NCBI RefSeq assembly: GCF_048403405.1
Contig: NZ_CP183129.1
Source: Escherichia coli
GTDB lineage: Bacteria; Pseudomonadota; Gammaproteobacteria; Enterobacterales; Enterobacteriaceae
Strand: one strand, 5' to 3'
Length of the DNA: 64,000 nucleotides
Below are positions 1 through 20,820 of this stretch, piece after piece. The translations under genes were made by a program, and so were the position numbers. A model generated the notes under the pieces. It ran no database searches, was not told the DNA's origin, and worked only from the letters and a program-made list of their open reading frames with translations. Each line of letters starts with the position of its first letter. The stretch's first letter is position 1.

Positions 1-1556
1 CCTGCGCCCGCGTCGCCATTAACCTTTCCTCGCCGCCGAAGCAAATCTCGGCGCTGACCACTCTGAGCCACCAGCAGGAGGCGGAAATTCGCCAGCTTGA
101 GCGCGAGCTTCGCATCGGGCTGCGTACCAACACCTCACGGATGACCGAGGTGCTGGTGCAGTACGATGAAACGCTGACGGCGCTGGATGAACTGGAAGCG
201 GCCTGGCATCAGCAGCAGGCGCTGGTCCGGGAGATTATCGCGCTGCGCCAGCAGTTGCTGGGCGTGGCAGAAGACGATGCGGCGTCGTTGCCGGACGCAG
301 ATGCCGCGGAGGATACGCCGCCAGAGTCAGAGTCAGAGTCAGAGTCAGAGTCAGAGTCAGAGTCAGAGTCAGAACAGGATAATACCGGTGCCGTACCGGC
401 TGATGAGGCCGACAGAGAACAGCCGGAAGAGACCGCTGAAACAGTTTCCCCGGTACAGCGGCTGGCCCAGCTCACTGCCGAACTGGACGCCCTGCATAAC
501 GACCGGTTGCTGGTCTCCCCGCACGTCGATAAAAAACAGATTGCGGCGGTGATTGCCGAATGGACCGGCGTGCCGCTCAACCGCCTGTCGCAGAATGAAA
601 TGTCGGTCATCACCGACCTGCCGAAATTGCTGGGCGACACCATCAAAGGCCAAGACCTGGCGATTGCCAGCCTGCATAAGCATCTACTGACCGCACGCGC
701 CGACCTGCGTCTTCCGGGACGCCCGCTCGGTGCGTTCCTGCTGGCTGGCCCCAGCGGTGTGGGTAAAACCGAAACCGTCCTGCAACTGGCAGAGCTGCTC
801 TACGGCGGTCGCCAGTACCTGACCACCATCAATATGTCCGAATTCCAGGAGAAACACACCGTCTCGCGGCTGATTGGTTCGCCTCCGGGCTACGTTGGCT
901 ACGGTGAAGGCGGCGTACTGACCGAAGCGATTCGCCAGAAACCCTACTCGGTAGTACTGCTCGATGAAGTGGAAAAAGCGCACCCGGATGTGCTCAACCT
1001 GTTCTACCAGTCGTTCGATAAGGGCGAAATGGCAGACGGTGAAGGCCGCCTGATTGACTGCAAAAATATCGTCTTCTTCCTGACGTCCAACCTCGGCTAC
1101 CAGGTAATAGTCGAGCACGCCGATGACCCGGAAACCATGCAGGAAGAACTGTATCCGGTGCTGGCCGACTTCTTCAAACCTGCCCTGCTGGCGCGTATGG
1201 AAGTGGTGCCGTATCTGCCGCTGTCGAAAGAGACGCTCGCCACCATTATCGCCGGAAAACTGGCCCGTCTGGATAACGTGCTGCGCAGTCGCTTTGGTGC
1301 AGAAGTGGTCATTGAACCGGAAGTGACGGACGAAATCATGAGCCGCGTCACCCGCGCGGAAAACGGCGCGAGGATGCTGGAATCGGTCATCGATGGCGAC
1401 ATGCTACCGCCGCTCTCGCTGCTGCTGTTGCAGAAAATGGCGGCTAACACGGCGATTGCCCGGATTCGGTTGTCGGCGGTGGACGACGCATTTACGGCAG
1501 ACGTGGAAGATGCTCAGAACGACGAGTCCGTCACAAAGGATGAAACGGTTTTATGA
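1..1556 (+). CDS. clpV: T6SS AAA+ ATPase ClpV/TssH, C-terminal ~518 codons (5' end lies outside the window)
   Basis: Reading frame is open from position 3 to the TGA at 1554-1556. Translation carries the second AAA+ module (Walker A LLAGPSGVGKTE, Walker B VVLLDEVEKAHPDV) and a Clp-type C-terminal domain. Confidence 0.85.
   Translation, partial: CARVAINLSSPPKQISALTTLSHQQEAEIRQLERELRIGLRTNTSRMTEVLVQYDETLTALDELEAAWHQQQALVREIIALRQQLLGVAEDDAASLPDADAAEDTPPESESESESESESESESEQDNTGAVPADEADREQPEETAETVSPVQRLAQLTAELDALHNDRLLVSPHVDKKQIAAVIAEWTGVPLNRLSQNEMSVITDLPKLLGDTIKGQDLAIASLHKHLLTARADLRLPGRPLGAFLLAGPSGVGKTETVLQLAELLYGGRQYLTTINMSEFQEKHTVSRLIGSPPGYVGYGEGGVLTEAIRQKPYSVVLLDEVEKAHPDVLNLFYQSFDKGEMADGEGRLIDCKNIVFFLTSNLGYQVIVEHADDPETMQEELYPVLADFFKPALLARMEVVPYLPLSKETLATIIAGKLARLDNVLRSRFGAEVVIEPEVTDEIMSRVTRAENGARMLESVIDGDMLPPLSLLLLQKMAANTAIARIRLSAVDDAFTADVEDAQNDESVTKDETVL
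324..371 (+). repeat. Perfect hexanucleotide tandem repeat (GAGTCA)x8 inside clpV, encoding (Glu-Ser)8
   Basis: Eight identical GAGTCA units read directly from the sequence, in frame with clpV and followed by GAA CAG. Confidence 0.95.
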
Positions 1557-2296
1557 GCAGGTTGCGCGTTTTCCGGCAGACAGGATGGTTTATCGCGGGC
1601 CTGATGACGGGCTTACCCGCCACTGCCGCGCCCGCAGAAACATCGTCAATGGCCGGTGTGGCGGTCGCCGTCGCCACCACGACCCCGCCGGATGCGACAG
1701 CCACGTCACAGGCCATGCAGTCCTGTCGGCGGGAGTCCGCGGCGCTGGAGCGGCTTGACTGCTATGACCGCCTGCTGGCACCGCTGTCCCCGTCAGGGTT
1801 TGACGGGGCGCTGGTCAAAGCCGGTTTTGTGGGCGAGGCCTGGACCCGCGCCACAGAGCAGGAAAAACGTCGCGAGGGCAACACCACAGAACTGCTGGTG
1901 ACGCAGGTGCCGGGGGAGCGCCCGACGGTGGTGATAACCACCCCGGCTATCGGCCATGTTCCGCCGCGCCCGGTGCTGATGTTCAGTTGCGTGGACAATA
2001 TCACCCGGATGCAGGTGGCGCTGATGCACCCTCTGGATGTCCATGATATCGCCGTCACTCTGAATGCCGACAGCCGGGCATTGCGTAGCCACTGGTTTGT
2101 GCGCGAGAACGGCACCCTGCTGGAGTCCAGCCGGGGGCTGTCCGGGATTGATGAAATTAAGCAACTGTTCGGCGCAAAAACGCTGACAGTGGATACCGGC
2201 GCAGATAACGCCGCAGGAAAGCTGACCTTTAACATTGACGGGCTGGCAAGGGCGATTGCCCCCCTGCGCGTTGCCTGCCACTGGGCGGGAGAATAA
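1553..2296 (+). CDS. T6SS-associated VasI-family protein (secreted/periplasmic, N-terminal signal peptide)
   Basis: ATG at 1553 overlaps the clpV stop (ATGA). N-terminal hydrophobic signal-like segment, then an Ala/Thr/Pro-rich tract. Position between clpV and tssA matches vasI in vas-type clusters. Family assignment is from recalled architecture, not a search. Confidence 0.55.
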   Translation: MSRLRVFRQTGWFIAGLMTGLPATAAPAETSSMAGVAVAVATTTPPDATATSQAMQSCRRESAALERLDCYDRLLAPLSPSGFDGALVKAGFVGEAWTRATEQEKRREGNTTELLVTQVPGERPTVVITTPAIGHVPPRPVLMFSCVDNITRMQVALMHPLDVHDIAVTLNADSRALRSHWFVRENGTLLESSRGLSGIDEIKQLFGAKTLTVDTGADNAAGKLTFNIDGLARAIAPLRVACHWAGE

Positions 2297-2300
2297 AAAT

Positions 2301-3713
2301 ATGGCAATGGACTTACGCGATCCGAATGTCTGGATAACGCACCTGCTGGAAAACCTGCCGGAAGAAAAACTGGCATCGGCGCTGAAAGATGACAACCCGG
2401 ACTGGGAGTATATCGACGGCGAAATCGTCAAACTGGGATCTCTGGCCCACAGTCAACTGGATATCCCGGAACTCCAGCGCCGGGGGCTGGTCATTCTGGC
2501 TTCGGAGAGTAAGGACTTTCGTCTGCTGGCGCATCTGCTGAGAACCCTGCAACACGCCGGTGATCCTCATCTCGCATTGCGCCTGCTGGCGCTGTATGTG
2601 GAGCATTACTGGTCGGTGGCTGCGCCGCAGAATATGGCACATAAAAAACGCTTTGCCAGCCAGGTCATTAAACGCTTCGAAACAGGTATTGAAGGCTTTT
2701 CACAGAACGCCGCCACAGCGCAGCGCGACGCGCTGTCAGGGGAACTGGCGAAACTGGCGCAGTGCTGGCAGTCACATAACGCCCCGGAACTGGCACTGGC
2801 TACCGATGATCTTTTTGCCCTGTACCAGCGTGCGTTTAATCGTGCGGCACCGGCTCCTGCCCCCACTCCGGCGGCCTCCGATAGTTCACGACAGACCACC
2901 GCCACGTCTGAAAGCGGCGTGACGCAACCCAGTGCTCCGGCTCCCCAAATCGCCATCGACAGTCACGACGACAAAGCCTGGCGCGACACGCTGTTAAAAG
3001 TGGCGGCTATTTTATGTGAACGCCAGCCGGACTCGCCGCAGGGCTATCGCCTGCGCCGCCATGCCCTGTGGCAATCCATCACCAGTACACCCCAGGCGGA
3101 AAGCGATGGACGTACCCCATTGGCTGCGGTCTCTGCCGATATGGTGGCGGATTACCAGTCCCGGCTTGCCAGCGCGGATATGGCGCTGTGGCAGCAGGTT
3201 GAGAAAAGCGTATTGCTGGCTCCTTACTGGCTGGACGGTCACTGTCTTTCTGCACAGACGGCACTGCGTCTGGGTTACAAACAGGTGGCAGACACCATCC
3301 GCGATGAGGTCATCCGCTTCCTTGAGCGTCTGCCCCAGCTTACCGGGCTGCTGTTTAATGACCGCACACCGTTTCTCAGTGAGCAGACGAAACAATGGCT
3401 GGCAGCTTCGCCCGACGGCAAAGTTGCACCGGTTGCGCAAATCGGTGAGGAATCGCAGGCAGCCAGAGCCTGTTTTGCTGGGCAGGGTCTGGAGGCGGCG
3501 CTGCGATATCTGGACATGCTACCCGAAGGCGATCCCCGCAATCAGTTTCACCGCCAGTACCTTGCCGCACAGTTGACGGAGGAGGCGGGGCTGATACAGC
3601 TTGCGCAGCAACAGTACCGGATGTTGTTGATGATAGGGAGTCAGATGATGGTGTCTGACTGGGAGCCATCATTACTTACGCAGCTTGAACAAAAATTCAC
3701 GGCAGAACAATAA
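2301..3713 (+). CDS. tssA: T6SS protein TssA (VasJ-like, ImpA_N-type N-terminal domain)
   Basis: ATG at 2301 just after the vasI-like stop (the tracked ORF starts further upstream at 2235). About 470 aa, lying between vasI and tssM as vasJ does. Confidence 0.7.
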   Translation: MAMDLRDPNVWITHLLENLPEEKLASALKDDNPDWEYIDGEIVKLGSLAHSQLDIPELQRRGLVILASESKDFRLLAHLLRTLQHAGDPHLALRLLALYVEHYWSVAAPQNMAHKKRFASQVIKRFETGIEGFSQNAATAQRDALSGELAKLAQCWQSHNAPELALATDDLFALYQRAFNRAAPAPAPTPAASDSSRQTTATSESGVTQPSAPAPQIAIDSHDDKAWRDTLLKVAAILCERQPDSPQGYRLRRHALWQSITSTPQAESDGRTPLAAVSADMVADYQSRLASADMALWQQVEKSVLLAPYWLDGHCLSAQTALRLGYKQVADTIRDEVIRFLERLPQLTGLLFNDRTPFLSEQTKQWLAASPDGKVAPVAQIGEESQAARACFAGQGLEAALRYLDMLPEGDPRNQFHRQYLAAQLTEEAGLIQLAQQQYRMLLMIGSQMMVSDWEPSLLTQLEQKFTAEQ

Positions 3714-3731
3714 AAGAGAACAGGAGTTTTT

Positions 3732-6700
3732 GTGTTCAGATTACCAACACCCCGACTACTCAGCGGACTCAAATCAGCCCTACGCCCGGCGATGCCCCGG
3801 TTTAAAGTCTCCGCTTTCTGGCTGCTGATACTGGCGTGGATTTTTCTGCTGGTATGGATCTGGTGGAAAGGCCCGACGTGGACGCTGTATGAAGAACAGT
3901 GGCTCAAACCACTGGCGAACCGCTGGCTGGCAACGGCGGCATGGGGGATTATCGCCCTAGTGTGGCTTACCGTCCGGATGATGAAGCGCCTGCAACAGCT
4001 TGAAAAAATGCAAAAGCAGCAGCGCGAGGAGGCCATTGATCCGCTCAGTGTGGAGCTGAACGCCCAGCAGCGTTACCTTGACCGCTGGCTGCTGCGCCTG
4101 CAACGCCATCTCGACAACCGCCGTTTCCTGTGGCAGTTGCCGTGGTATATGGTCATCGGCCCGGCGGGCAGTGGCAAAACGACACTGCTGCGCGAGGGTT
4201 TTCCGTCCGACATTATTTATGCCCCGGAGGGCGCACGCGGCGCAGAACAACGCCTGTACCTCACGCCCCATGTCGGTAAACAGGCGGTGATCTTTGATAT
4301 CGACGGCACACTCTGCGCTCCCGCTGATGCGGATATCCTGCATCGCCGTCTGTGGGAACATGCCCTCGGCTGGCTGAAAGAAAAGCGCGCGCGCCAGCCG
4401 CTGAACGGGATTATTCTGACACTCGATTTACCCGATCTGCTTACCGCAGACAAACGCCGCCGCGAACATCTGTTACAGACGCTGCGCAGCCGCTTGCAGG
4501 ATATACGCCAGCATCTTCACTGCCAGTTACCGGTTTACGTGGTACTCACCCGGCTTGATTTATTGCAGGGTTTTGCCGCCCTGTTCCAGTCACTGAACAG
4601 ACAGGATCGCGATGCAATTCTAGGGGTCACGTTCACCCGCCGCGCCCATGAAAATGATGACTGGCGAACAGAGTTGAATGCTTTCTGGCAGACATGGGTG
4701 GATCGAATGAACCTAGCGTTGCCGGATCTGATGGTCGCTCAGACTCACACCCGCGCGTCTTTATTTAGTTTTTCCCGCCAGATGCAGGGAAGCCGTGAAC
4801 CACTGGTGTCACTGCTTGAGGGTCTGCTTGACGGCGAAAATATGAACGTGATGCTGCGTGGCGTCTATCTCACCTCTTCGCTTCAGCGCGGACAGATGGA
4901 TGATATTTTCACCCAGTCTGCCGCCCGCCAATACCGGCTGGGCAATAACCCACTGGCGTCCTGGCCTCTGGTGGACACCGCACCCTATTTCACCCGTAGC
5001 CTGTTCCCGCAGGCATTACTCGCAGAGCCTAATCTGGCAACAGAAAGCCGCACCTGGCTGATGCGTTCCCGTCGCCGCCTGACGGTTTTCTCTACCACAG
5101 GAGGCGTGGCGGCACTGCTGCTCATCACCGGCTGGCATCACTATTACAACGGTAACTATCAGTCCGGCATCACCGTGCTTAAGCAGGCAAAAGCCTTTAT
5201 GGATGTACCGCCTCCGCTGGGGGAAGATGATTACGGCAACCTGCAACTGCCGCTGCTGAACCCGGTACGCGATGCCACGCTGGCCTATGGCGACTGGGGC
5301 GACCGCAGCCGTCTGGCCGATATGGGACTGTACCAGGGACGGCGTATCGGGCCTTATGTGGAACAAACCTATCTGCAACTGCTGGAGCAGCGTTACCTGC
5401 CTTCGCTGTTTAACGGGCTGGTCAAAGCGATGAACGCCGCGCCGCCGGAGAGTGAGGAAAAACTCGCCGTGCTGCGTGTGATGCGAATGCTGGAGGACAA
5501 AAGCGGACGCAATAATGAGGTGGTGAAGCAGTATATGGCAAAACGCTGGAGCGAAAAATTCCACGGCCAGCGCGATATCCAGGCACAACTGATGTCCCAT
5601 CTTGACTACGCGCTGGCTCATACTGACTGGCATGCAGAGCGTCAGGCGGGCGACGGTGATGCCATCAGCCGCTGGACGCCATATGACAAGCCTGTTGCGA
5701 CAGCACAGAAAGAACTGAGCAAACTGCCTGTCTACCAGCGAGTTTACCAGAGCCTGAAAACGCGGGCGCTGGGCGTTCTTCCTGCCGACCTCAATCTGCG
5801 TGACCAGGTAGGGCCAACTTTTGACCAGGTATTTACATCTGCCGATGATAACAAACTGGTTGTTCCACAGTTTCTTACCCGTTACGGCCTGCAAAGCTAT
5901 TTTGTAAAACAGCGCGATGAACTGGTTGAACTGACGGCGATGGATTCCTGGGTACTCAACCTCACCCGCAGCGTGAAATACAGTGACGCCGACCGCGCGG
6001 AAATCCAGCGCCAGTTGACCGAGCAGTATATCAGCGACTACACCGCCACCTGGCGGGCCGGGATGGACAATCTGAATATCCGCAATTTTGAGTCCATCGG
6101 ACAACTGACCGGGGCGCTGGAGCAGGTTATCAGCGGCGACCAGCCTTTGCAGCGGGCGCTGACCGTGCTGCGTGACAACACACAGCCAGGCGTCTTTTCT
6201 GAAAAACTCTCTGCCAAAGAGCGGGATGAGACCCTGGCAGAGCCGGATTACCAGTTACTCACCCGCCTCGGGCATGAATTCGCCCCGGAAAACAGTACCC
6301 TGACAGTACAGAAAGACAAAGAAAGCACGATGCAGGCCGTATACCAGCAGCTCACCGAGTTACACCGCTACCTGCTGGCAATCCAGAACGCGCCTGTACC
6401 AGGGAAATCGGCGCTGAAAGCCGTGCAGTTAAGGCTTGATCAGAACAGCAGCGATCCAATATTCGCCACCCGCCAGATGGCAAAAACACTGCCTGCTCCG
6501 CTCAACCGCTGGGTAGGCAGGCTGGCTGACCAGGCCTGGCATGTGGTGATGGTGGAAGCCGTTCACTATATGGAAGTGGACTGGCGCGACAGCGTGGTGA
6601 AACCGTTTAACGAGCAACTGGCAAATAACTATCCGTTTAATCCACATTCTGCACAGGATGCCTCACTGGATGCCTTCGAACGATTCTTTAAACCAGATGG

Positions 6701-7256
6701 CATACTGGATACCTTCTACCAGCAGAACCTAAAGCTGTTTATCGACAATGACCTGAGTCTGGAGGATGGCGATAACAACGTCATTATTCGCGAAGATATT
6801 ATTGCGCAACTGGAAACCGCGCAGAAAATCCGTGACATATTCTTCAGCAAACAGAACGGTCTGGGAACATCCTTTGCCGTGGAAACGGTATCGCTTTCCG
6901 GCAACAAACGCCGCAGCGTACTGAACCTTGACGGTCAGTTAGTCGATTACAGCCAGGGCCGTAACTATACCGCCCATCTGGTCTGGCCTAACAATATGCG
7001 CGAAGGCAACGAAAGCAAACTGACGCTGGTTGGTGCCCGCGGCGGCGCACCGCGCAGTATCAGCTTCAGCGGGCCGTGGGCTCAGTTCCGCCTGTTCGGG
7101 GCCGGACAGCTGACCGGAGTACAGGATGGCAACTTTACCGTGCGCTTTAGTGTGGACGGTGGCGCAATGACCTACCGCGTGCATACCGACACGGAAGATA
7201 ACCCGTTCAGCGGTGGGTTATTCAGCCAGTTTGGCCTGTCAGACACACTGTACTGA
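3732..7256 (+). CDS. tssM: T6SS membrane-complex protein TssM (IcmF/VasK family)
   Basis: GTG start at 3732 preceded by AGGAG at 3722-3726. 1174 aa with N-terminal transmembrane segments and a Walker A motif (GPAGSGKTT). Confidence 0.9.
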   Translation: MFRLPTPRLLSGLKSALRPAMPRFKVSAFWLLILAWIFLLVWIWWKGPTWTLYEEQWLKPLANRWLATAAWGIIALVWLTVRMMKRLQQLEKMQKQQREEAIDPLSVELNAQQRYLDRWLLRLQRHLDNRRFLWQLPWYMVIGPAGSGKTTLLREGFPSDIIYAPEGARGAEQRLYLTPHVGKQAVIFDIDGTLCAPADADILHRRLWEHALGWLKEKRARQPLNGIILTLDLPDLLTADKRRREHLLQTLRSRLQDIRQHLHCQLPVYVVLTRLDLLQGFAALFQSLNRQDRDAILGVTFTRRAHENDDWRTELNAFWQTWVDRMNLALPDLMVAQTHTRASLFSFSRQMQGSREPLVSLLEGLLDGENMNVMLRGVYLTSSLQRGQMDDIFTQSAARQYRLGNNPLASWPLVDTAPYFTRSLFPQALLAEPNLATESRTWLMRSRRRLTVFSTTGGVAALLLITGWHHYYNGNYQSGITVLKQAKAFMDVPPPLGEDDYGNLQLPLLNPVRDATLAYGDWGDRSRLADMGLYQGRRIGPYVEQTYLQLLEQRYLPSLFNGLVKAMNAAPPESEEKLAVLRVMRMLEDKSGRNNEVVKQYMAKRWSEKFHGQRDIQAQLMSHLDYALAHTDWHAERQAGDGDAISRWTPYDKPVATAQKELSKLPVYQRVYQSLKTRALGVLPADLNLRDQVGPTFDQVFTSADDNKLVVPQFLTRYGLQSYFVKQRDELVELTAMDSWVLNLTRSVKYSDADRAEIQRQLTEQYISDYTATWRAGMDNLNIRNFESIGQLTGALEQVISGDQPLQRALTVLRDNTQPGVFSEKLSAKERDETLAEPDYQLLTRLGHEFAPENSTLTVQKDKESTMQAVYQQLTELHRYLLAIQNAPVPGKSALKAVQLRLDQNSSDPIFATRQMAKTLPAPLNRWVGRLADQAWHVVMVEAVHYMEVDWRDSVVKPFNEQLANNYPFNPHSAQDASLDAFERFFKPDGILDTFYQQNLKLFIDNDLSLEDGDNNVIIREDIIAQLETAQKIRDIFFSKQNGLGTSFAVETVSLSGNKRRSVLNLDGQLVDYSQGRNYTAHLVWPNNMREGNESKLTLVGARGGAPRSISFSGPWAQFRLFGAGQLTGVQDGNFTVRFSVDGGAMTYRVHTDTEDNPFSGGLFSQFGLSDTLY

Positions 7257-7266
7257 GGAGGCAGGG

Positions 7267-8619
7267 ATGAATAGTAACGGACTGACACAAACTATCGTTA
7301 CCGGCAGTGACCCGCGCGGGCTGCCGGAATTCAGCGCCATCCGCGAGGAAATAAACAAAGCCAGCCATCCGTCACAGCCTGAGCTGAACTGGAAACTGGT
7401 GGAGTCGCTGGCGCTGGCGATTTTTAAAGCCAACGGTGTGGATTTACACACCGCCACCTACTATACGCTTGCCCGGACACGGACACAGGGACTGGCGGGA
7501 TTCTGCGAAGGTGCGGAACTGCTGGCGGCAATGGTAAGCCACGACTGGGATAAATTCTGGCCGCAGGGCGGTCCGGCGCGTACTGAAATGCTGGACTGGT
7601 TTAACTCCCGAACCGGCAATATTCTGCGTCAGCAAATCTCCTTTGCGGAACCCGATCTGCCACTGATCTACCGCACAGAGCGGGCATTGCAGCTTATCTG
7701 CGACAAGCTTCAGCAGGTGGAGCTGAAGCGCGTTCCGCGCGTGGAGAATCTGCTCTATTTTATGCAGAACACGCGTAAGCGGCTTGAACCCCAGCCGAAG
7801 AGTAACGTTGAAAACGCCGTACAGACCACGGTTAGAACACTGATTTATGCCCCGGAAACAACGGCTTCCTCCACGCCAGAAGCGGTAGTGCCTCCCCTGC
7901 CCGACCTGCCTGAGATGAAAGTAGAAGTGCGCAGTCTGTCAGAGAATCCCCCACAGGCCAGTGTGATGAAGCAAGGCAGTACGGTAAGAGGGTTTATCAC
8001 GGGGATCGCCTGTTCAGTGGCTGTCGCCTCAGCATTGTGGTGGTGGCAGGTCTATCCGGTGCAACAGCAACTGTTACAGGTTAACGACACCGCGCAGGGC
8101 GCAGCAACGGTGTGGATGGCCTCACCTGAACTAGAAAACTATGAGCGCAGGCTACAACAGCTTCTTGGCGTCTCCCCGGTACAACCGCTGGAAACCGGGA
8201 TGCAGATGATGCGTGTTGCCGACAGTCGCTGGCCGGAAAGCCTGCAGCAGCAGCAGGCCTCGACACATTGGAATGAAGCACTCAAAACCCGCGCACAGAG
8301 TAGCCCGCAGTTGCGTGGCTGGTTGCAGACCCGTCAGGACTTACATGCTTTTGCAGATCTCGTGATGCGGCGCGAGAAAGAGGGACTAACCCTTTCCTAT
8401 ATCAAAAATGTCATCTGGCAGGCGGAGCGGGGACTGGGGCAGGAAACACCCGTTGAGTCTCTGTTGACGCAGTACCAGGATGCCCGTGCGCAGAAGCAGA
8501 ATATAGATGCGCTGGAAAAACAAATTAATGAGCGACTCGAAGGCGTGTTAATCCGCTGGCTGCTGCTGAAGAATAACGTCATGCCAGAGGCGGCAACCGG
8601 GACCACGGCCGAAAAATAA
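7267..8619 (+). CDS. VasL-like T6SS accessory protein (ImpA_N-related N-terminus, one central transmembrane helix)
   Basis: ATG at 7267 after GAGGAGG, 10 bp after the tssM stop. Predicted TM segment ITGIACSVAVASALWWW. Position after tssM corresponds to vasL. Confidence 0.6.
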   Translation: MNSNGLTQTIVTGSDPRGLPEFSAIREEINKASHPSQPELNWKLVESLALAIFKANGVDLHTATYYTLARTRTQGLAGFCEGAELLAAMVSHDWDKFWPQGGPARTEMLDWFNSRTGNILRQQISFAEPDLPLIYRTERALQLICDKLQQVELKRVPRVENLLYFMQNTRKRLEPQPKSNVENAVQTTVRTLIYAPETTASSTPEAVVPPLPDLPEMKVEVRSLSENPPQASVMKQGSTVRGFITGIACSVAVASALWWWQVYPVQQQLLQVNDTAQGAATVWMASPELENYERRLQQLLGVSPVQPLETGMQMMRVADSRWPESLQQQQASTHWNEALKTRAQSSPQLRGWLQTRQDLHAFADLVMRREKEGLTLSYIKNVIWQAERGLGQETPVESLLTQYQDARAQKQNIDALEKQINERLEGVLIRWLLLKNNVMPEAATGTTAEK

Positions 8620-8642
8620 TTATTTAATTAAAGGAGATTATC

Positions 8643-9125
8643 ATGGCAAATATGAGTTATTTATCTTTGAGTGGAGAGACACAAGGGCTGATTTCAGCAG
8701 GTTGCTCAACGCTTGATTCTGTCGGAAACAAAGCACAGCCAGAACATAAAGATCAGATCATGGTTTATGCGTTAATGCATTCCATCTCAAGAAGTCAAAA
8801 TGTCAATCATCATGAATTAATTATCACCAAACCGGTTGATAAATCCTCACCATTGCTGGCAAAAGCACTTAGTGACAATGAAAAAATGGTAACATGTGAA
8901 TTTATACTCTACCGAACCAGTAAAGCGGGTATTTACCAGCCTTATTATAAAATAAACCTGTCAAAAGCCCGAATATCAAGTATTGATTTTGTCACACCGC
9001 ATGCTGTCCTGGAAAAAGAACTGGAGCCACAGGAGAGAATTGCCTTTATTTATGAAGATATTTCCTGGGAGCATACGTTAGCCGGTACGAATGCAATGAG
9101 TAAATGGCAGGATCGTGTACAGTAA
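8643..9125 (+). CDS. hcp: Hcp-family T6SS tube protein (divergent, encoded in AT-rich DNA)
   Basis: 160 aa, AAGGAG RBS at 8631-8636. Length and motif pattern (SSPLL-KA, Y-I-L-A-I, IAF-YE-ISW) resemble Hcp. Confidence 0.75.
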   Translation: MANMSYLSLSGETQGLISAGCSTLDSVGNKAQPEHKDQIMVYALMHSISRSQNVNHHELIITKPVDKSSPLLAKALSDNEKMVTCEFILYRTSKAGIYQPYYKINLSKARISSIDFVTPHAVLEKELEPQERIAFIYEDISWEHTLAGTNAMSKWQDRVQ

Positions 9126-9168
9126 TTTACTGTAATAACATAATAAATTACTATTGCGGAGAGATATA

Positions 9169-10083
9169 ATGGCTGGTTTAAGGAATAATAACAACACACA
9201 GAATGCACAGTGGGCTGATTATGTGGGTGACATTCTTCGGGGGGCTCAACCGATAAACCAGCTAGTACCTCAGCACCCTTATCTTAACGACGTCCCACTC
9301 ATTGATGAATTAAGGCGTCAGAACACTCATCATGTTATTCTCTTGACACTTGATGTTGCAAAAAAAATACTCAGCTCAATAACATCATTTGATTACATTC
9401 ATTTTATCACTACACATCCTTCAGGTATAAAAGATACACTCGCTTGGTTAGTTAACGCGGGTAAATTAATGACTGAGTTTGATGGAAATGGGAAAATTAT
9501 ATTTAACTTTAATACCTTAAAGTATACAAAAGCAAGTTACTTTGAAATACTTGGAGAGAAATATATAAAAATTACAACATCCAGCCCCTGGCTTTTAGAA
9601 AAGCTCGGTAAATATATTTTCTCTTCACGAGCGCCTCAAGTTCTGGAACTCGCTATTGGCTGGCGAGGAGCTTTATCTGAATCAATAAAAGGAGTTAAGT
9701 TCTGTATCTGGTTTTCAGTAGCCTGGAGAACCATAGAATTTATTATGAGTTCAGAGCGAGATCTGGTTAATTTTCTTGGTGATTTTTCAATGGATGTGGC
9801 CAAAGCAGTGATTGCAGGCGGTGTTGCAACTGCTATTGGAAGCCTGGCTTCTTTTGCCTGTCTTAGTTTTGGCCTTCCAGTAATTCTTGTAGGAGGAGCA
9901 ATTTTACTTACAGGGATAGTGTGTACAGTTGTTTTAAATGAAATCGATGCTCAATACCATTTATCAGAAAAATTAAAAGATGCAATTAGAGATGGACTAA
10001 AACGGCAACAGGAACTTGATAAATGGAAAAGGGAAAACATGACTCCATTTATGTATGTTCTTAACACTTCCCCCGTGATATGA
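9169..10083 (+). CDS. Hypothetical protein; candidate Hcp-linked T6SS effector with C-terminal glycine-zipper hydrophobic helices
   Basis: ATG at 9169 with GGAG 7 nt upstream (tracked ORF begins at a TTG at 9154). AT-rich codon usage matching hcp. C-terminal segment VAKAVIAGGVATAIGSLASFACLSFGLPVILVGGAILLTGIVCTVVL. Function is inferred from context only. Confidence 0.55.
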   Translation: MAGLRNNNNTQNAQWADYVGDILRGAQPINQLVPQHPYLNDVPLIDELRRQNTHHVILLTLDVAKKILSSITSFDYIHFITTHPSGIKDTLAWLVNAGKLMTEFDGNGKIIFNFNTLKYTKASYFEILGEKYIKITTSSPWLLEKLGKYIFSSRAPQVLELAIGWRGALSESIKGVKFCIWFSVAWRTIEFIMSSERDLVNFLGDFSMDVAKAVIAGGVATAIGSLASFACLSFGLPVILVGGAILLTGIVCTVVLNEIDAQYHLSEKLKDAIRDGLKRQQELDKWKRENMTPFMYVLNTSPVI

Positions 10084-10247
10084 GGATTAACTATGCGTTT
10101 ACATGTTAAATTGAAAGAGTTTTTTTCGATGTTTTTTATAGCCATATTATTTTTCCCTGCATTCAATGCTTCTTTATTTTTTACCGGAATTAGGTGATGC
10201 TGCCAACTTACTGATTTAGTGTATGATGGTGTTTTTGAGGTGCTCCA

Positions 10248-10523
10248 GTGGCTTCTGTTTCTATCAGCTGTCCCTCCTGTTCAGCTACTGACGGGGTGGT
10301 GCGTAACGGCAAAAGCACCGCCGGACATCAGCGCTATCTCTGCTCTCACTGCCGTAAAACATGGCAACTGCAGTTCACTTACACCGCTTCTCAACCCGGT
10401 ACGCACCAGAAAATCATTGATATGGCCATGAATGGCGTTGGATGCCGGGCAACCGCCCGCATTATGGGCGTTGGCCTCAACACGATTTTCCGCCATTTAA
10501 AAAACTCAGGCCGCAGTCGGTAA
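10248..10523 (+). CDS. insA: IS1 InsA (transposition inhibitor / N-terminal part of transposase)
   Basis: 91-aa ORF beginning [43 protein letters not shown], inside IS1. Confidence 0.9.
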
Positions 10524-10945
10524 CCTCGCGCATACAGCCGGGCAGTGACGTCATCGTCTGCGCGGAAATGGACGAACAGTGGGGATACGTCGGGGCTAAA
10601 TCGCGCCAGCGCTGGCTGTTTTACGCGTATGACAGGCTCCGGAAGACGGTTGTTGCGCACGTATTCGGTGAACGCACTCTGGCCACACTGGAGCGTCTTC
10701 TAAGCCTGCTGTCGGCCTTTGAGGTCGTGGTATGGATGACGGATGGCTGGCCGCTGTATGAATCCCGCCTGAAGGGAAAGCTGCACGTAATCAGCAAGCG
10801 TTACACTCAGCGAATTGAGCGGCATAACCTGAATCTGAGACAACATCTGGCAAGGCTGGGACGGAAGTCACTGTCGTTCTCAAAATCGGTGGAGCTGCAT
10901 GACAAGGTCATCGGGCATTATCTGAACATAAAACACTATCAGTAA
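10442..10945 (+). CDS. insB: IS1 InsB reading frame (expressed as InsAB' transposase by -1 frameshifting)
   Basis: -1 frame ORF overlapping the end of insA, translation typical of IS1 InsB ([21 protein letters not shown]...). Confidence 0.88.
10496..10505 (+). promoter_or_regulatory. IS1 programmed -1 ribosomal frameshift site TTTAAAAAAC
   Basis: A6C motif lies in the insA/insB overlap; the IS1 frameshift mechanism is established knowledge. Confidence 0.8.
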
Positions 10946-11484
10946 GTTGGAGTCATTACCCGGAATTAAACCTCTATATTCAATAATAAAAGGCTCCACG
11001 GAAATATTTTATGATTGGAGAATGTTGATTCTATGCTTCGGTTTCATATCGTTTTCCTTGTTAAATATTCATGTAATTTTACTAACAATAATAAAATCAT
11101 TCTTAATAAAAAAAACAAAGGTAATCAATTTCGCCACAGACATAACAATACAGCTAACTCTTATATTTTTACTAATAGCTATCGTAATAGCACCTTTAAT
11201 AGCTCCTTTTGTCACAGGATATGTCAATGCTAATTGTCACCCCTGCGGTAATAACACGGGGATTTTCCCAGGAGCAATCTATATTAAAAATGGCATAAAA
11301 TGTAATAATGAACATATTTCTCGCAAGGAAGATTAAGCAGTTAAATAATTAAATATTCTAAAACAAACAGTTTTTAACGCCGGATTCCATGTCCTTTCTT
11401 GCACTGTCTTTGTCAGGAACAATTTCTTATGCAAAGAATTTTGTATTATTGCCGCCAGAAATTCCTGGCGGCAGATATAATTTA

Positions 11485-12270
11485 TTATTGATAGCGGTTA
11501 ACCAAATCTTTTACCATCGCTTTATAGGTCTTTTGCTTAAGTTGTATGATTTGCTGCTCTGTCATATCAGTCGTACTGGCTTCATTCTTGCCGGGAAATG
11601 GTGGAAGCACTTTATATTCATAATTCACCGGCGACCAGGCAGCCCACTCACCTGTAGCTACATCCACCAGCGTGAATCGCACCAGATAGCGCAGTGAGAT
11701 TGTGTTAGTCAGTTTTTCATTTTTATAATCGGACCATACTGTTGATTTCAGTGCAGTGTCATATTTTCCTGTCTGCAACGTATCCTGGTAAACAATAATC
11801 GCTTTCTGATGGCCTTTTGCCGCCACAAAACGTAATGCCTGCATCCAGTTCATATTTTCAGCACTGGCAACATCCTCGTTCTCATTTTTATCTTTGTTTT
11901 TGTTACAAGTCAGAGGCTTTTGTCTGTCCGGGATACCAGAGAATGTGGAAACAGTATAATATTTTCGCATCTCCTCCTGCATAATGGTTTCCGGTGCGCG
12001 ACTGCCAGACTGGACAAGTATTACGGGAGAATTGAGAGGCACACGAAACTCATCTCCTTCAAGCGCAGCCTGAATATCCTCCTCGGATACAGCCAGAGTG
12101 GTTTCATTACCGAATAAATCTTTGTCTGTCAGTTGCGGGGGAATGTTTTTATTAATATTACTTTGTGTAACTTGAACTTTTTTCTTTTTTTCATCAATAG
12201 AAGATTGAGAGGCACATCCTGCAAGCAGCGAGAATAATACACATATGCAACAAACCTTTTTTGAATTCAT
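11485..12270 (-). CDS. yafT: Lipoprotein YafT
   Basis: 261 aa with lipobox LLAGC after a signal peptide; lies next to aspV as yafT does in K-12. Confidence 0.8.
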
Positions 12271-12536
12271 AATCGGACACTCCCTCGCCTGTCATAATGA
12301 TTAGAATATTTAGCACTGATAACGGACTCTAATTATATACCCCACTTAAATAATAACAAACAAAATCAACATGAAATATACATTCATTTAATCAATATAA
12401 AATTATTCACTAAAAATATATTTAAGTTGAATGGTTCGATATCATTATTGAATTTTAATAAATGAGACAACAAGCGAGAGTTACGCACTTACGCCAGAGT
12501 AAAATCATTGAACAGAGAAATATCGTGATTTAAATG

Positions 12537-12569
12537 CAAAAAAACCGCAAAATTAAAAATTTTGCGGTT
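12537..12569 (-). terminator. Rho-independent terminator downstream of aspV
   Basis: Palindrome AACCGCAAAATT/AATTTTGCGGTT followed on the minus strand by a T-run. Confidence 0.6.
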
Positions 12570-12596
12570 CTCTGAACTCATTTTCATGAGTGAATT

Positions 12597-12673
12597 TGGC
12601 GGAACGGACGGGACTCGAACCCGCGACCCCCTGCGTGACAGGCAGGTATTCTAACCGACTGAACTACCGCTCC
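12597..12673 (-). tRNA. aspV: tRNA-Asp (GTC)
   Basis: Reverse complement reads GGAGCGGTAGTTCAGTCGGTTAGAATACCTGCCTGTCACGCAGGGGGTCGCGGGTTCGAGTCCCGTCCGTTCCGCCA. Confidence 0.97.
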
Positions 12674-12696
12674 GCGTTGTGTTCCGTTGGGAACGA

Positions 12697-12731
12697 GGCG
12701 AATATTACGGATTGCCTCACCCTTCGTCAAC
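12697..12731 (-). promoter_or_regulatory. Putative aspV promoter (TTGACG, 17-nt spacer, TAATAT)
   Basis: On the minus strand, -35 at 12725-12730 and -10 at 12703-12708, followed by a GC-rich discriminator before the tRNA 5' end. Confidence 0.5.
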
Positions 12732-12805
12732 GGTTTTTCTCATCTTTTGAATCGTTTGCTGCAAAAATCGCCCAAGTCGCTATTTTTAGCGCCTTTTACA
12801 GGTAT

Positions 12806-13537
12806 TTATGCCCGCCAGAGGCAGCTTCCGCCCTTTTTCTGCACCAGATCGAGACGGGCTTCATGTGCCGCAAGCTCTTCATCTGTCGCAAAAACAACGC
12901 GTAACTTACTTGCCTGACGCACAATGCGCTGAATTGTTGTTTCACCTTGTTGCTGTTGTGTCTCTCCTTCCATCGCAAAAGCCATCGACGTTTGACCACC
13001 AGTCATCGCCAGATAAACTTCCGCAAGGATCTGGGCATCGAGTAATGCCCCGTGCAACGTTCGTTTACTGTTATCTATTTCGTAGCGGGCACATAACGCA
13101 TCGAGGCTGTTGCGCTTACCGGGAAACATTCTCCTCGCCACCGCAAGGCTATCGGTGACCTTACAGAAGGTATTGGTCTTCGGAATATCGCGCTTAAGCA
13201 ACGAAAACTCGTAGTCCATAAAGCCGATATCGAACGCTGCGTTATGGATCACCAACTCCGCGCCGCGAATATAGTCCATGAACTCATCGGCTACTTCGGC
13301 AAACGTGGGCTTATCGAGCAAAAATTCATCGGCAATACCATGTACGCCAAAGGCTTCCGGATCCACCAGCCGATCGGGTTTGAGATAAACATGGAAGTTA
13401 TTGCCCGTCAGGCGACGGTTCACCACTTCAACGGCACCAATCTCAATGATCTTGTGGCCTTCATAGTGCGCGCCAATCTGGTTCATACCGGTGGTTTCGG
13501 TATCGAGAACGATCTGGCGTGTAATTGCAGTGCTCAT
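12806..13537 (-). CDS. dnaQ: DNA polymerase III epsilon subunit (3'-5' proofreading exonuclease)
   Basis: Translation [20 protein letters not shown]...GGSCLWRA, 243 aa. Confidence 0.97.
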
Positions 13538-13601
13538 AGCGGTCATTTATGTCAGACTTATCGTTTTACAGTTCGATTCAATTACAGGAAGTCTACCAGA
13601 G

Positions 13602-14069
13602 ATGCTTAAACAGGTAGAAATTTTCACCGATGGTTCGTGTCTGGGTAATCCAGGACCTGGGGGTTACGGCGCTATTTTACGCTATCGCGGACGCGAGAAA
13701 ACCTTTAGCGCAGGCTACACCCGCACCACCAACAACCGTATGGAGTTGATGGCCGCTATTGTCGCGCTGGAGGCGTTAAAAGAACATTGCGAAGTCATTT
13801 TGAGTACCGACAGCCAGTATGTCCGCCAGGGTATCACCCAGTGGATCCATAACTGGAAAAAACGTGGCTGGAAAACCGCAGACAAAAAACCAGTAAAAAA
13901 TGTCGATCTCTGGCAACGTCTTGATGCTGCGCTGGGGCAGCATCAAATCAAATGGGAATGGGTTAAAGGCCATGCCGGTCATCCAGAAAACGAACGTTGC
14001 GATGAACTGGCTCGTGCCGCAGCGATGAATCCCACACTGGAAGATACGGGCTATCAAGTCGAAGTTTAA
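13602..14069 (+). CDS. rnhA: Ribonuclease HI
   Basis: Translation [23 protein letters not shown]...TGYQVEV, 155 aa; divergent from dnaQ. Confidence 0.97.
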
Positions 14070-14791
14070 GCCTGTGGTTTACGACATTGCCGGGTGGCTC
14101 CAACCGCCTGGCGAATTCGTGGCTTGTTTTTACTCTGTTTCATCGGATTTAGCGTTAAAGGAATAGTCCGTTTCCGGGCGACAATAAGTTGTAAGCAACC
14201 AAGCGCAGGAATATGCGCATTCAATAGTTTTCCACCGTGTTTGTTCCACGGGAGAACGTGGAAACGGCTGGCGTGTAGCACTTCAAAATTCAACAAAGAG
14301 AGCCAGTCCAGCTGCCGCATCAGAGTAAACATCCGGCTATTATAGGGCGAGGTTTTGCGCAATACCGGCACAAGTTTTCGTAATCCCATTAAACTGATGG
14401 GATTGAAGCCACTAATCACCAGCCAGCCATCATCAATCAATACCCGATCGGCTTCACGCAATAAACGATGCGGATCGGTGCACCATGGCAATGTATGTGC
14501 CAGTAGACAAACATCAACGGATTTATCGGCAAAAGGAAGATGAAGTGGGTCCGCCTGCACCTGGACGGGCAGTCCTTGCGCAGAAACATTCACTTGATGA
14601 GAAACCGCGCACGCTTCGCAATTGATTTCTGCGCTTAAATTGCCAATCTTAAGCAGATGAAAACCATACATTTTAGTGAACCACGGGTTGAGCTGGCGCT
14701 CCAGCGCCTTGCGATAAAGCTCTCCCCAGGGCAAATCGCCCCAGCAATCAGGAGCCACGACAGTTTGAGGGACTCTTGCCGGTTTCATCAC
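14066..14791 (-). CDS. yafS: SAM-dependent methyltransferase YafS
   Basis: ~240-aa ORF at the position of yafS; first codon may be one Met downstream. Confidence 0.8.
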
Positions 14792-14818
14792 AACCTTCCG
14801 TTTCGCACTGAGAGGTAA

Positions 14819-15577
<759 letters not shown>

Positions 15578-15648
15578 TAAAACTTTCTTGTCATCGGCTC
15601 CGTTCGCCGTTATGATCGGTCGTCTTTTAAGCAACTATTGACACACAC

Positions 15649-17007
15649 ATGAAGGCAAAAGCGATATTACTCGCCTCTGTCCTGCTCGTGGGTTGCCAGA
15701 GTACCGGCAACGTTCAACAGCACGCACAGAGCCTTTCTGCAGCTGGTCAAGGGGAAGCAGCAAAGTTTACAAGTCAGGCACGATGGATGGACGATGGGAC
15801 GTCTATCGCGCCAGATGGTGACTTGTGGGCTTTCATTGGCGACGAGCTAAAGATGGGAATTCCGGAAAATGACCGGATTCGCGAACAGAAACAGAAATAT
15901 TTACGCAATAAGAGCTATCTCCACGATGTAACTTTACGGGCAGAGCCGTATATGTACTGGATAGCCGGGCAAGTTAAAAAACGTAACATGCCTATGGAAC
16001 TGGTACTACTACCCATAGTGGAGAGCGCTTTTGATCCTCACGCAACGTCTGGCGCCAATGCCGCAGGCATCTGGCAGATCATTCCGAGCACGGGGCGCAA
16101 TTATGGTTTGAAACAGACCCGCAATTATGACGCGCGTCGCGATGTTGTTGCTTCAACAACTGCCGCGCTGAACATGATGCAGCGTCTGAACAAAATGTTT
16201 GACGGCGACTGGCTTCTGACCGTAGCGGCTTATAACAGCGGCGAAGGTCGGGTCATGAAGGCAATTAAAACGAACAAAGCGCGTGGGAAATCCACGGACT
16301 TCTGGTCGTTACCGTTGCCGCAAGAAACGAAGCAGTACGTGCCTAAAATGCTGGCATTGAGTGATATTCTCAAAAACAGCAAGCGTTATGGCGTACGTCT
16401 GCCAACGACCGATGAAAGCCGTGCTCTGGCGCGTGTGCACCTGAGCAGCCCGGTTGAAATGGCGAAGGTTGCAGATATGGCGGGGATTTCCGTCAGCAAG
16501 CTGAAGACATTCAACGCTGGCGTGAAAGGCTCCACGCTGGGCGCAAGTGGTCCGCAGTACGTGATGGTGCCAAAGAAGCATGCAGATCAACTGCGTGAAT
16601 CTCTGGCTTCGGGCGAAATTGCTGCTGTACAGTCGACGCTGGTTGCCGACAATACGCCGCTTAACAGCCGTGTTTACACCGTACGCTCTGGCGACACGCT
16701 TTCAAGCATCGCTTCACGTCTCGGCGTAAGCACCAAAGATTTGCAGCAGTGGAACAAACTGCGCGGCTCTAAGCTGAAACCAGGCCAAAGTCTGACGATT
16801 GGCGCAGGTAGTAGCGCACAGCGGTTGGCAAACAACAGCGATAGCATTACTTATCGTGTGCGCAAAGGCGATTCGCTTTCAAGCATTGCTAAACGCCACG
16901 GCGTGAACATCAAAGATGTGATGCGCTGGAACAGCGATACTGCGAATCTGCAACCAGGCGATAAGCTGACGTTGTTTGTGAAAAACAACAACATGCCAGA
17001 TTCCTGA
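15649..17007 (+). CDS. mltD: Membrane-bound lytic murein transglycosylase D
   Basis: 452 aa, lipoprotein signal (LLVGC), transglycosylase domain and C-terminal LysM repeats. Confidence 0.93.
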   Translation: MKAKAILLASVLLVGCQSTGNVQQHAQSLSAAGQGEAAKFTSQARWMDDGTSIAPDGDLWAFIGDELKMGIPENDRIREQKQKYLRNKSYLHDVTLRAEPYMYWIAGQVKKRNMPMELVLLPIVESAFDPHATSGANAAGIWQIIPSTGRNYGLKQTRNYDARRDVVASTTAALNMMQRLNKMFDGDWLLTVAAYNSGEGRVMKAIKTNKARGKSTDFWSLPLPQETKQYVPKMLALSDILKNSKRYGVRLPTTDESRALARVHLSSPVEMAKVADMAGISVSKLKTFNAGVKGSTLGASGPQYVMVPKKHADQLRESLASGEIAAVQSTLVADNTPLNSRVYTVRSGDTLSSIASRLGVSTKDLQQWNKLRGSKLKPGQSLTIGAGSSAQRLANNSDSITYRVRKGDSLSSIAKRHGVNIKDVMRWNSDTANLQPGDKLTLFVKNNNMPDS

Positions 17008-17024
17008 CAAACCAGATAATGAAA

Positions 17025-17053
17025 GGCACCGATTCCCCCGGTGCCATTTTTTA
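17025..17053 (+). terminator. Rho-independent terminator after mltD
   Basis: Hairpin GGCACCGATTCCCCCGGTGCC followed by ATTTTTTATTT. Confidence 0.65.
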
Positions 17054-17054
17054 T

Positions 17055-17825
17055 TTATGCTGCTTTATGTGCTTCTACCATGATGATATCACTGGTGAAA
17101 GAGCCATCATTCTGCAAGGCAAAATACGTTTTCACCTCTGTCGATGCGCTCTGTTGGTAAATGCGAATAGCGTCTACTAACGCTTCTGGCGTACGCATTC
17201 TCGCGACCCATGAAGAAAATTCCAGCGGTAACTTATCTGTAATTAAATTATCAACTATCAGATTGGCTTCATTGATTAACGTCAACCACTCACCGCTGGC
17301 GTAGTTTCGTACGTGAGAGGTATCGCGTAATGCTTCTACCGTCTGTAACCAGATGTCGCGCACTGGATGACCCGGAGACATTACGTCCATCACAATCAGC
17401 CTACCGCCGGGTTTCAATACCCGATTCACTTCACGCAGTGCTGCACCAACATCATGCCAGTGATGGGCAGAATAACGGCTGATAACAATATCAAATGCGT
17501 TATCGGCAAATGGCAGACTTTCGACATAACCCTGGCGGGTGGTGATATTTTTCAGTTGCCGGGCTTCGGCAGCTTGTGCCACGACATCCAGCATGTGGGC
17601 AGATAAGTCATACGCCACCACCGCGCTCACGTTCTGCGCAGCGACAAAGCTGGCATGCCCTGCTCCGCAGCCCATATCAAGTACACTTGCATCAGGATAA
17701 TCAGCCAGACGCACCGCCAGGCGCTGTAAATCCCGTCCGGATGCATGTACGGTACTAGTCAGATATTCGCTAGCTTGAGAGCTAAACTGCTTTTCTACGT
17801 GGTCATGGTGGGATTGTGTTGTCAT
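17055..17825 (-). CDS. yafE: SAM-dependent methyltransferase (UbiE/COQ5-like) YafE
   Basis: Methyltransferase motif LDMGCGAGH; true start may be internal to the tracked ORF. Confidence 0.7.
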   Translation of the reverse strand: MTTQSHHDHVEKQFSSQASEYLTSTVHASGRDLQRLAVRLADYPDASVLDMGCGAGHASFVAAQNVSAVVAYDLSAHMLDVVAQAAEARQLKNITTRQGYVESLPFADNAFDIVISRYSAHHWHDVGAALREVNRVLKPGGRLIVMDVMSPGHPVRDIWLQTVEALRDTSHVRNYASGEWLTLINEANLIVDNLITDKLPLEFSSWVARMRTPEALVDAIRIYQQSASTEVKTYFALQNDGSFTSDIIMVEAHKAA

Positions 17826-17902
17826 TGCGCTGTCCTTTTGTTGTTTGAGTATAAAAGGGCAGCGCCAAACGTTGGTCTGCCCTGTGGCAGACCTGACATA
17901 CC

Positions 17903-18754
<852 letters not shown>

Positions 18755-18943
18755 CTACTGTTATAGGGATTTTAGCTCACTCTTTCAACGAGCAATTGTA
18801 TATTGTTATGTAAGCAAGTGCTTACACCGGTCAGAATTTTGCTCATTATCGAGAACATTAAATCGGATGACATATCACGCATCCTGATGGTTTAATGACA
18901 AATAAATTCAAAATATCTCTTCTATTTTGCAATAGGAGCAAAA

Positions 18944-19858
18944 ATGAAAGCCACGTCGGAAGAACTCGCCATTTTTGTTTCGGTCGTCGAAAGCGGCAGC
19001 TTTAGCCGGGCAGCGGAACAATTAGGGCAAGCAAACTCAGCGGTAAGCCGGGCGGTGAAAAAGCTGGAGATGAAACTTGGCGTTAGCCTGCTTAATCGGA
19101 CCACGCGACAACTTAGCCTGACGGAAGAAGGCGAGCGTTATTTTCGTCGCGTACAGTCAATTTTGCAGGAGATGGCAGCGGCAGAATCAGAAATTATGGA
19201 GACGCGTAATACACCGCGTGGACTGTTACGGATCGATGCCGCAACTCCAGTGGTGCTGCACTTTCTGATGCCGTTGATTAAGCCTTTTCGTGAACGCTAT
19301 CCGGAAGTCACTTTATCACTAGTCTCCTCCGAAACGATTATTAATTTGATCGAAAGAAAAGTGGATGTCGCGATACGCGCCGGTACGTTAACGGATTCCA
19401 GCTTACGTGCCAGGCCGTTATTTAACAGTTATCGAAAAATTATAGCCTCCCCCGATTATATTTCCCGCTATGGGAAGCCAGAAACGATCAACGATTTAAA
19501 GCAACATGTTTGCCTGGGATTCACTGAACCCGCTTCCCTCAATACCTGGCCGATAGCCTGTAGCGATGGACAATTACATGAGGTGAAGTACGGTTTGTCA
19601 TCCAATAGTGGGGAAACACTGAAACAGCTTTGCCTGAGTGGCAACGGGATTGCGTGTTTGTCCGACTACATGATCGACAGAGAAATCGCTCGCGGAGAAT
19701 TGGTGGAGTTAATGGCAGATAAAGTGTTGCCAGTGGAAATGCCATTCAGTGCAGTCTATTACAGCGACCGTGCGGTAAGTACGCGCATCCGGGCTTTTAT
19801 CGATTTCCTTAGCGAGCATGTAAAAACAGCTCCCGGAGGAGCTGTCAGAGAGGCTTAA
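18944..19858 (+). CDS. yafC: LysR-family transcriptional regulator YafC
   Basis: 304 aa with N-terminal helix-turn-helix ([23 protein letters not shown]). Confidence 0.88.
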
Positions 19859-20658: not shown

Positions 20659-20780
20659 AATATGCCTCTTTTAATGCTATTTTCGTTAACTGAGGTGATT
20701 ATGGGCTTTAGAATGTTGCGGAAAAAGGGCGTAAAACGCAGAGGATTTTTGCGATTTAAGCAATAATAGAAATATAGACG

Positions 20781-20808
20781 AAAAAAAACCTCGAGCGTTA
20801 ACTCGAGG
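20781..20808 (-). terminator. Rho-independent terminator at the end of the rrnH operon
   Basis: Hairpin CCTCGAGCGTTAACTCGAGG followed on the minus strand by T8. Confidence 0.7.
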
Positions 20809-20820
20809 CTTCTTAATAAG

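Follow-up and report, generated by a model that had tools for sequence, protein, structure and literature searches.

A predicted Tme-family type VI secretion effector in an hcp-tme-tmi cassette of Escherichia coli, with its presumed immunity gene ykfM split by IS1

Type VI membrane-disrupting effectors (Tme) were described as a family by Fridman et al. (2020 Nat Commun 11:1085; PMC7046647). The family is defined by its C-terminal domain, which has an almost invariant DxxK motif, a predicted transmembrane (TM) helix and a flanking aspartate; members occur with N-terminal PAAR, MIX, VgrG or ImpA fusions, and the genes downstream encode multi-TM "Tmi" immunity proteins centred on DUF1240 (PMC7046647). 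The same study found Tme1 and Tme2 to be toxic only when sent to the periplasm, where they caused no lysis; DiOC2(3) depolarisation was comparable to that obtained with VasX and CCCP, propidium iodide was taken up by E. coli, and rescue was by the cognate Tmi only (PMC7046647). Its Supplementary Data 5 also lists an E. coli protein, WP_000908072.1, with a Tme domain at 122–277 (E = 1.74e-37), an upstream Hcp (WP_000002621.1) and a downstream 155-aa protein with three TM segments (WP_001236628.1), the last of which is YkfM. Experimental work on this E. coli protein was not found in the literature searched, and a literature search for the accession found nothing.

Here, we analyzed a 64,000-nucleotide stretch of E. 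coli DNA, referred to as the window, in which the + strand gene at 9169–10083 encodes a 34 kDa protein with 100% identity to WP_000908072.1 of E. coli MS 69-1. The annotation of the protein is "hypothetical protein". Its 304 codons contain no internal stop; the mechanically called open reading frame starts at TTG 9154, while ATG 9169 is the RefSeq start of the identical gene and has a GGAGAG ribosome-binding site 5–10 nt 5' of it. The frame is a genuine gene. A preliminary description had proposed a membrane-targeting T6SS effector, possibly of an undescribed family. The first proposal agrees with the hcp-effector-immunity cassette in which the gene lies, with homologs fused to PAAR, DUF4280 and MIX, and with the listing of the accession as a Tme, and the searches gave no confident homolog among non-toxic adaptors or structural proteins. 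The second had been overtaken by the 2020 paper, which describes the family and has the exact accession in its dataset. Membership requires an RPS-BLAST match to a Tme1-based profile with E ≤ 1e-8 across 80 aa or more, and the published table value combined with the 100% identity places the protein within this limit; its link to the tested Tme1 and Tme2 rests on this published PSSM result together with the motif and context tests below. By sequence, the protein is thus a member of the Tme family and not of a new one. Taken as a whole, the locus very probably encodes a Tme-family antibacterial toxin, the cargo in an hcp-tme-tmi cassette that closes the E. coli T6SS cluster on its aspV/yafT side.

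The genes are ordered tssH', vasI, tssA, tssM, vasL, hcp, effector and ykfM, followed by the convergent yafT, tRNA-Asp (aspV), dnaQ and rnhA (Table 1). A truncation of tssH at the window start was considered and rejected, as the frame is open from base 3. The TssH/ClpV frame (+) contains an acidic (Glu-Ser)8 repeat, ESESESESESESESES, in a low-complexity linker at window ~320–370. In MS 69-1, the first genes of the cluster form a unit of their own, hcp(172 aa)-vgrG-rhs, which makes the 160-aa Hcp a second Hcp; it is only 29% identical to the 172-aa core Hcp. Gaps of 43 nt (hcp-effector) and 9 nt (effector-ykfM) separate the three genes, whose GC contents are 39% (hcp), 38% (effector) and 31% (ykfM) compared to 56% for tssM and vasL (window 8643–11336 vs 3732–8619). 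This composition suggests that hcp-tme-ykfM is a compact cassette that was gained independently of the core cluster. The window contains two identical tRNA-Asp(GTC) genes (12597–12673 and 20821–20897 (- strand)), and the T6SS island ends at the first of them, aspV, a classic site of island integration. A scan for promoters and terminators gave no sites above those of shuffled sequence. Between the convergent ykfM and yafT lies a 10-bp GC-rich stem-loop (11449–11474) that is plausible as a bidirectional terminator.

Table 1 Features of the predicted hcp-tme-ykfM cassette and its surroundings, in window coordinates.
Feature	Position	Strand	Remarks
tssM, intact	3822–7256	+	
VasL/ImpA_N-domain T6SS accessory gene, intact	7267–8619	+	RefSeq annotation of identical MS 69-1 sequence; TssA-like N-terminus; no internal stops
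Second, divergent Hcp, 160 aa	8643–9125	+	TIGR03344, E = 1e-60; 43 nt upstream of effector
Predicted Tme-family effector gene	9169–10083	+	304 aa; = WP_000908072.1; full-length form of K-12 pseudogene yafU
Tme domain as published, residues 122–277	9532–9999	+	Supplementary table, PMC7046647
DxxK motif D209-V-A-K212	9793–9804	+	D in 56/59, K in 57/59 homologs; defining motif in PMC7046647
Predicted hydrophobic, small-residue-rich helical hairpin	9796–9939	+	Residues 210–257; turn G235-L-P237; hydropathy, AF2
Flanking aspartate D260 (LNEID)	9946–9948	+	D in 58/59 homologs
ykfM 5' fragment	10093–10192	+	Codons 1–33, TM1 only; alignment with intact MS 69-1 ykfM
IS1, 768 bp, in ykfM	10193–10960	+	Inverted-repeat ends at 10193 and 10960; InsA/InsB ORFs
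ykfM 3' fragment	10961–11336	+	Residues 32–155: TM2, TM3, C-terminal Cys-x-Cys region
yafT	11485–12270	-	Lipoprotein gene; right-hand island border
tRNA-Asp (aspV)	12597–12673		Beyond yafT

The effector gave no family match in Pfam and NCBIfam. A scan of 1.84 billion representatives recovered 169 related clusters with a conserved core at about residues 120–285, and in an alignment of 59 sequences the nearly invariant positions were G129, G164, G175, D209, K212 and D260. The three defining elements of the family are therefore present in order, namely D209 with K212, a hydrophobic segment (210–257) and D260. Ten longer homologs were inspected for additional domains, and PAAR was found in four and DUF4280 in one; one 769-aa homolog bears the N-terminal 375 residues of the MIX effector VPA1263. 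Fusions to PAAR, DUF4280 and MIX are the hallmark of a polymorphic T6SS toxin domain. Together with the Hcp gene that precedes the effector by 43 nt where a T6SS cluster ends, they match the C-terminal-domain and T6SS setting of the published family. Homology to the PAAR-fused relatives begins at about residue 45, upstream of the published domain boundary, which suggests that the E. coli protein is little more than a toxin module and needs a carrier. Stand-alone and PAAR-fused homologs have in common a short motif of the Y-(L/V)-x-G type ("YLTG", "YLRG") in alignment columns ~179–190, just after the PAAR/linker region of the fusions; the corresponding part of the effector is DYVGDILRG (residues 17–25, window 9217–9243). 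The motif may serve in loading or may be where the toxin module starts. Two further relatives are probably contamination, mis-called fusions or chimeric assemblies: a 295-aa "eukprot" protein that carries an Hcp Pfam domain and matches the toxin with 87% identity over 79% of its length, and a 402-aa protein with ABC-transporter domains and 96% identity over 66%.

The neighborhood was compared for six relatives with 33–63% identity, from Salmonella, a metagenome, Rahnella, Kluyvera, Xenorhabdus and Photorhabdus. All six have a gene of PF06836 (DUF1240) directly downstream of the effector, and four have an Hcp gene beside it, either directly upstream in the same orientation (Salmonella and the metagenomic relative) or nearby on the opposite strand (Rahnella and Photorhabdus). 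Two are fully syntenic with E. coli (tssM-vasL-hcp-tme-DUF1240-yafT), and some are located far from any T6SS gene, e.g. those of Kluyvera and Xenorhabdus. Additional DUF1240 genes follow the cognate one in Salmonella (a second copy; locus L007, 5926–8010) and in Photorhabdus (three in tandem; locus L009, 5860–7140), and look like orphan immunity gene arrays.

The preliminary description had rested on consecutive hydrophobic helices rich in small residues, with GxxxG/AxxxG-like spacing and a charged tail. The quoted string, VAKAVIAGGVATAIGSLASFACLSFGLPVILVGGAILLTGIVCTVVL, corresponds to residues 210–256 of the effector. Kyte-Doolittle 19-residue means exceed 1.3 across 206–263, with a peak of 2.7, giving one continuous hydrophobic block. 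An AF2 model places helices at 199–234 and 238–263 (pLDDT 77–95), and P237 lies mid-block; the proline and the two modelled helices together suggest that the block forms a helical hairpin. The helices are hence recovered by both hydropathy and modelling, and a direct reading of the sequence likewise agrees with the charged tail (16 of 39 residues at 258–296). The spacing held only in part. AxxxG is present (A213-G217 and A220-G224) and GxxxG is absent. Six small-xxx-small pairs occur in the segment; 20,000 shuffles of its residues averaged 6.3 pairs, with 68% of the shuffles reaching at least six, and its single small-xxx-G-xxx-small instance was equalled or exceeded in 53%. The zipper periodicity is thus no more than composition gives, which leaves the implied specific glycine zipper without a basis. 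On comparison with the motif and Pfam features of the class, the glycine-zipper membrane toxins (Tse4/Ssp6-like) were accordingly set aside, as no repeat beyond composition and no Gly-zipper Pfam match were found. What appears informative in the alignment is the richness of TM1 in small residues, and not their periodicity, as this richness is conserved in the family: positions 216–225 are small in 59–81% of the 59 homologs, except 219, 221 and 223 (20–47%). In the remainder of the block, G249 is glycine in 47 of 59 homologs and small (G/A/S) in 97%, and L256 is leucine in 53 of 59.

The AF2 model as a whole is of only moderate confidence (pLDDT 77, pTM 0.47), with pLDDT 87–95 over 164–290, and predicts four long helices around the hydrophobic hairpin as well as a beta hairpin at 120–137. 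PDB sequences were searched with the effector alone and with a profile of the 59 aligned sequences, and nothing significant was returned. A match to AhlB (E = 0.91) was rejected as compositional, since it spans the hydrophobic stretch only, and no significant sequence or structural similarity to the ClyA/AhlB-type alpha-pore-forming fold was found. The colicin-type pore-forming domain (colicin A/E1/Ia; VasX-like; a bundle of about ten helices), which had been put forward as a comparison, gave no match in the PDB sequence searches or with Foldseek, and no solved fold matches. In AFDB50, Foldseek found only members of the family itself, unannotated and bearing the names "yafU", "ImpA domain-containing" or "PAAR domain-containing", which is consistent with the Tme assignment and adds no information on mechanism. 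As modelled, the fold lends no support to a colicin-like or a ClyA-like toxin, and a defined pore and a more general disruption are both possible.

For the E. coli protein, we infer by analogy that it is toxic, secreted and dependent on Hcp. The bare toxin module would be loaded onto the T6SS, most probably via the dedicated divergent Hcp encoded 43 nt upstream, and fired into the periplasm of neighboring Gram-negative cells. There, the hairpin at 210–257, bracketed by the DxxK motif and D260 at the interface, would insert into the inner membrane from the periplasmic side, and by analogy with Tme1 and Tme2 the membrane potential would be dissipated and the membrane made permeable. Sister cells would be protected by YkfM, an inner-membrane protein with three predicted TM segments.

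The route of loading could also be read otherwise. The 160-aa Hcp is the presumed carrier or chaperone on the strength of genetic linkage, and delivery could instead occur by the VgrG/PAAR spike, possibly via the VasL/ImpA_N protein or another adaptor. A protein of 304 aa (34 kDa) is large for the Hcp lumen, related domains are borne by PAAR and MIX, which are spike-linked routes, and some UniProt relatives are labelled "ImpA domain-containing". We nevertheless regard spike delivery as somewhat doubtful, as a dedicated divergent second Hcp lies directly upstream in E. coli, Salmonella and the metagenomic relative, and in Rahnella and Photorhabdus the effector gene has an Hcp gene beside it even where no T6SS cluster surrounds it.

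The only other record of the proposed immunity gene ykfM comes from a Tn5 screen for hyperlethality to nalidixic acid. No literature linking ykfM or yafU to type VI secretion was found in the library searched, where "yafU" alone gave only unrelated results. Intact YkfM has 155 aa and three hydrophobic segments; searched against Pfam, it gave no DUF1240 match and only a spurious 10-residue conotoxin match. It shares 49% identity with the DUF1240 (PF06836) protein at the syntenic Salmonella position (E = 3e-46), and hhalign linked it to the more distant DUF1240 neighbors (probability 85%, E = 6.5e-6), with which it has three TM segments and a C-terminal C...Y...C motif in common. YkfM thereby corresponds to the Tmi pattern of three to six TM segments, a DUF1240 or DUF1240-like sequence and a position directly downstream, in a gene that is split by IS1 in the window. 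We presume from these similarities that ykfM is a diverged DUF1240/Tmi-type immunity gene, located 9 nt 3' of the effector.

IS1 lies between 8-bp target duplications (CGGAATTA; 10185–10192 and 10961–10968), and removal of the element with one duplication copy restores the intact 155-aa ykfM frame. The 5' fragment translates as MRLH...TGIR*, its frame ending just inside IS1, and the 3' fragment is 100% identical to YkfM residues 32–155 (tblastn). A search of 5,426 complete E. coli genomes did not recover the junction, and apart from IS1 the flanks match MS 69-1 (100% identity for window 1–10192, 99.98% for 10956–22968), from which we conclude that the insertion is very recent. The source strain is therefore probably without full immunity. 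Such a loss would be tolerable, since from within the cytoplasm Tme toxins do no harm; killing requires delivery by an active T6SS, so that lost immunity is lethal only where siblings attack one another. The split gene would be costly if the system fires among kin, and the T6SS or the toxin may be silent in this strain. A frame following IS1 (TTG 10947, 129 aa) still encodes TM2, TM3 and the Cys region of YkfM and could be functional; the strain may thus have a silent T6SS, suffer sibling intoxication or be protected by this 129-aa product.

A second reading is that the gene is a true Tme toxin gene that is functionally dead or silent in this strain, either for want of expression of the cluster or because the toxin stays unloaded, with a decaying cassette in which the IS1 hit on ykfM was neutral. 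It draws on the interruption of ykfM while all else is 100% identical to MS 69-1 over 10.2 kb, and on ~400 complete genomes with cassette remnants only. Against it, the reading frames of the toxin, hcp, vasL, tssM, tssA and vasI are all intact despite the split, the insertion is so recent, being absent from the 5,426 genomes, that selection may not yet have acted, and the 129-aa frame could still function. We consider a dead or silent cassette unlikely.

The distribution of the cassette extends to K-12. The K-12 pseudogene yafU corresponds to residues 193–304 of the effector, i.e. its C-terminal 112 aa (96% identity), and in MG1655 it adjoins intact ykfM and yafT (locus L002, 4258–5085; cf. 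window 9745–11336). A yafU remnant beside an intact ykfM indicates that K-12 lost the T6SS and most of the toxin and retained the immunity gene. Among the 5,426 complete E. coli genomes, ykfM is present in 3016 and the N-terminal part of the toxin in 2611; about 400 have ykfM without this part, the K-12-like orphan immunity state. As a tentative and perhaps the less probable proposal, the orphan ykfM of K-12 and these ~400 genomes would be working immunity against the Tme of about half of E. coli, and the window would at the same time represent a natural immunity-minus lineage, where the C-terminal two thirds of YkfM are enough for protection or, alternatively, siblings are intoxicated. If so, two long-uncharacterised K-12 loci, ykfM and yafU, would gain a T6SS function, and orphan ykfM would shield standard laboratory hosts too. 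As K-12 hosts carry the presumed immunity gene, it could mask toxicity in heterologous tests. The ykfM::IS1 allele is a natural knockout of the immunity gene and could be used to probe cassette activity among kin. For annotation, "Tme-family T6SS effector / Tmi immunity" is gained for what is now "hypothetical protein", "YkfM" and "yafU pseudogene"; as a discovery, the locus carries little weight, the family, motif, immunity partners and exact accession having been published in 2020.

That the protein is instead a resident inner-membrane protein, be it a T6SS accessory or anchoring component or something unrelated, and not a secreted toxin, is highly improbable: the strongly hydrophobic 48-residue segment, UniProt/AFDB relatives named "Inner membrane protein yafU" or "Membrane protein", the position within the T6SS cluster beside accessory genes and the dispensability of the supposed immunity gene would all suit it, whereas the domain is a C-terminal passenger of PAAR, DUF4280 and MIX-effector proteins, an arrangement typical for polymorphic toxins and untypical for structural components, the next gene is always a variable one of the multi-TM DUF1240 type, sometimes in tandem arrays as seen for immunity genes, the effector is missing from about half of E. 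coli with stubs in its place, and the tested Tme members are secreted toxins.

Viewed as a Tme effector, the protein resembles Tme1/Tmi1 and Tme2/Tmi2 of Vibrio parahaemolyticus in the DxxK, TM segment and flanking D of its C-terminal Tme domain, in its T6SS-linked neighborhood and in the multi-TM DUF1240-type gene directly after it. In contrast to Tme1 and Tme2, the E. coli clade is found within the main T6SS cluster, behind a dedicated second Hcp; unlike other Tme members, the E. coli effector has no N-terminal delivery domains, and its conservation with PAAR-fused relatives starts from about residue 45, which differs from the published Tme boundary. With the colicin-type pore formers and VasX of V. 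cholerae, it would share killing from the periplasmic side with loss of the inner-membrane potential (both presumed here), a hydrophobic helical hairpin and membrane-embedded immunity proteins. The glycine-zipper T6SS effectors Tse4 of P. aeruginosa and Ssp6 of Serratia are likewise small membrane-acting cargo with small-residue-rich helices. Judged by their description, they differ from the E. coli effector, which has no GxxxG or GxxxGxxxG repeat and no Pfam Gly-zipper match. The K-12 yafU/ykfM locus, finally, is the converse of the one studied here: in the window the toxin is complete and ykfM is broken, whereas K-12 has lost the T6SS cluster and lacks two thirds of the toxin at the N-terminal end.
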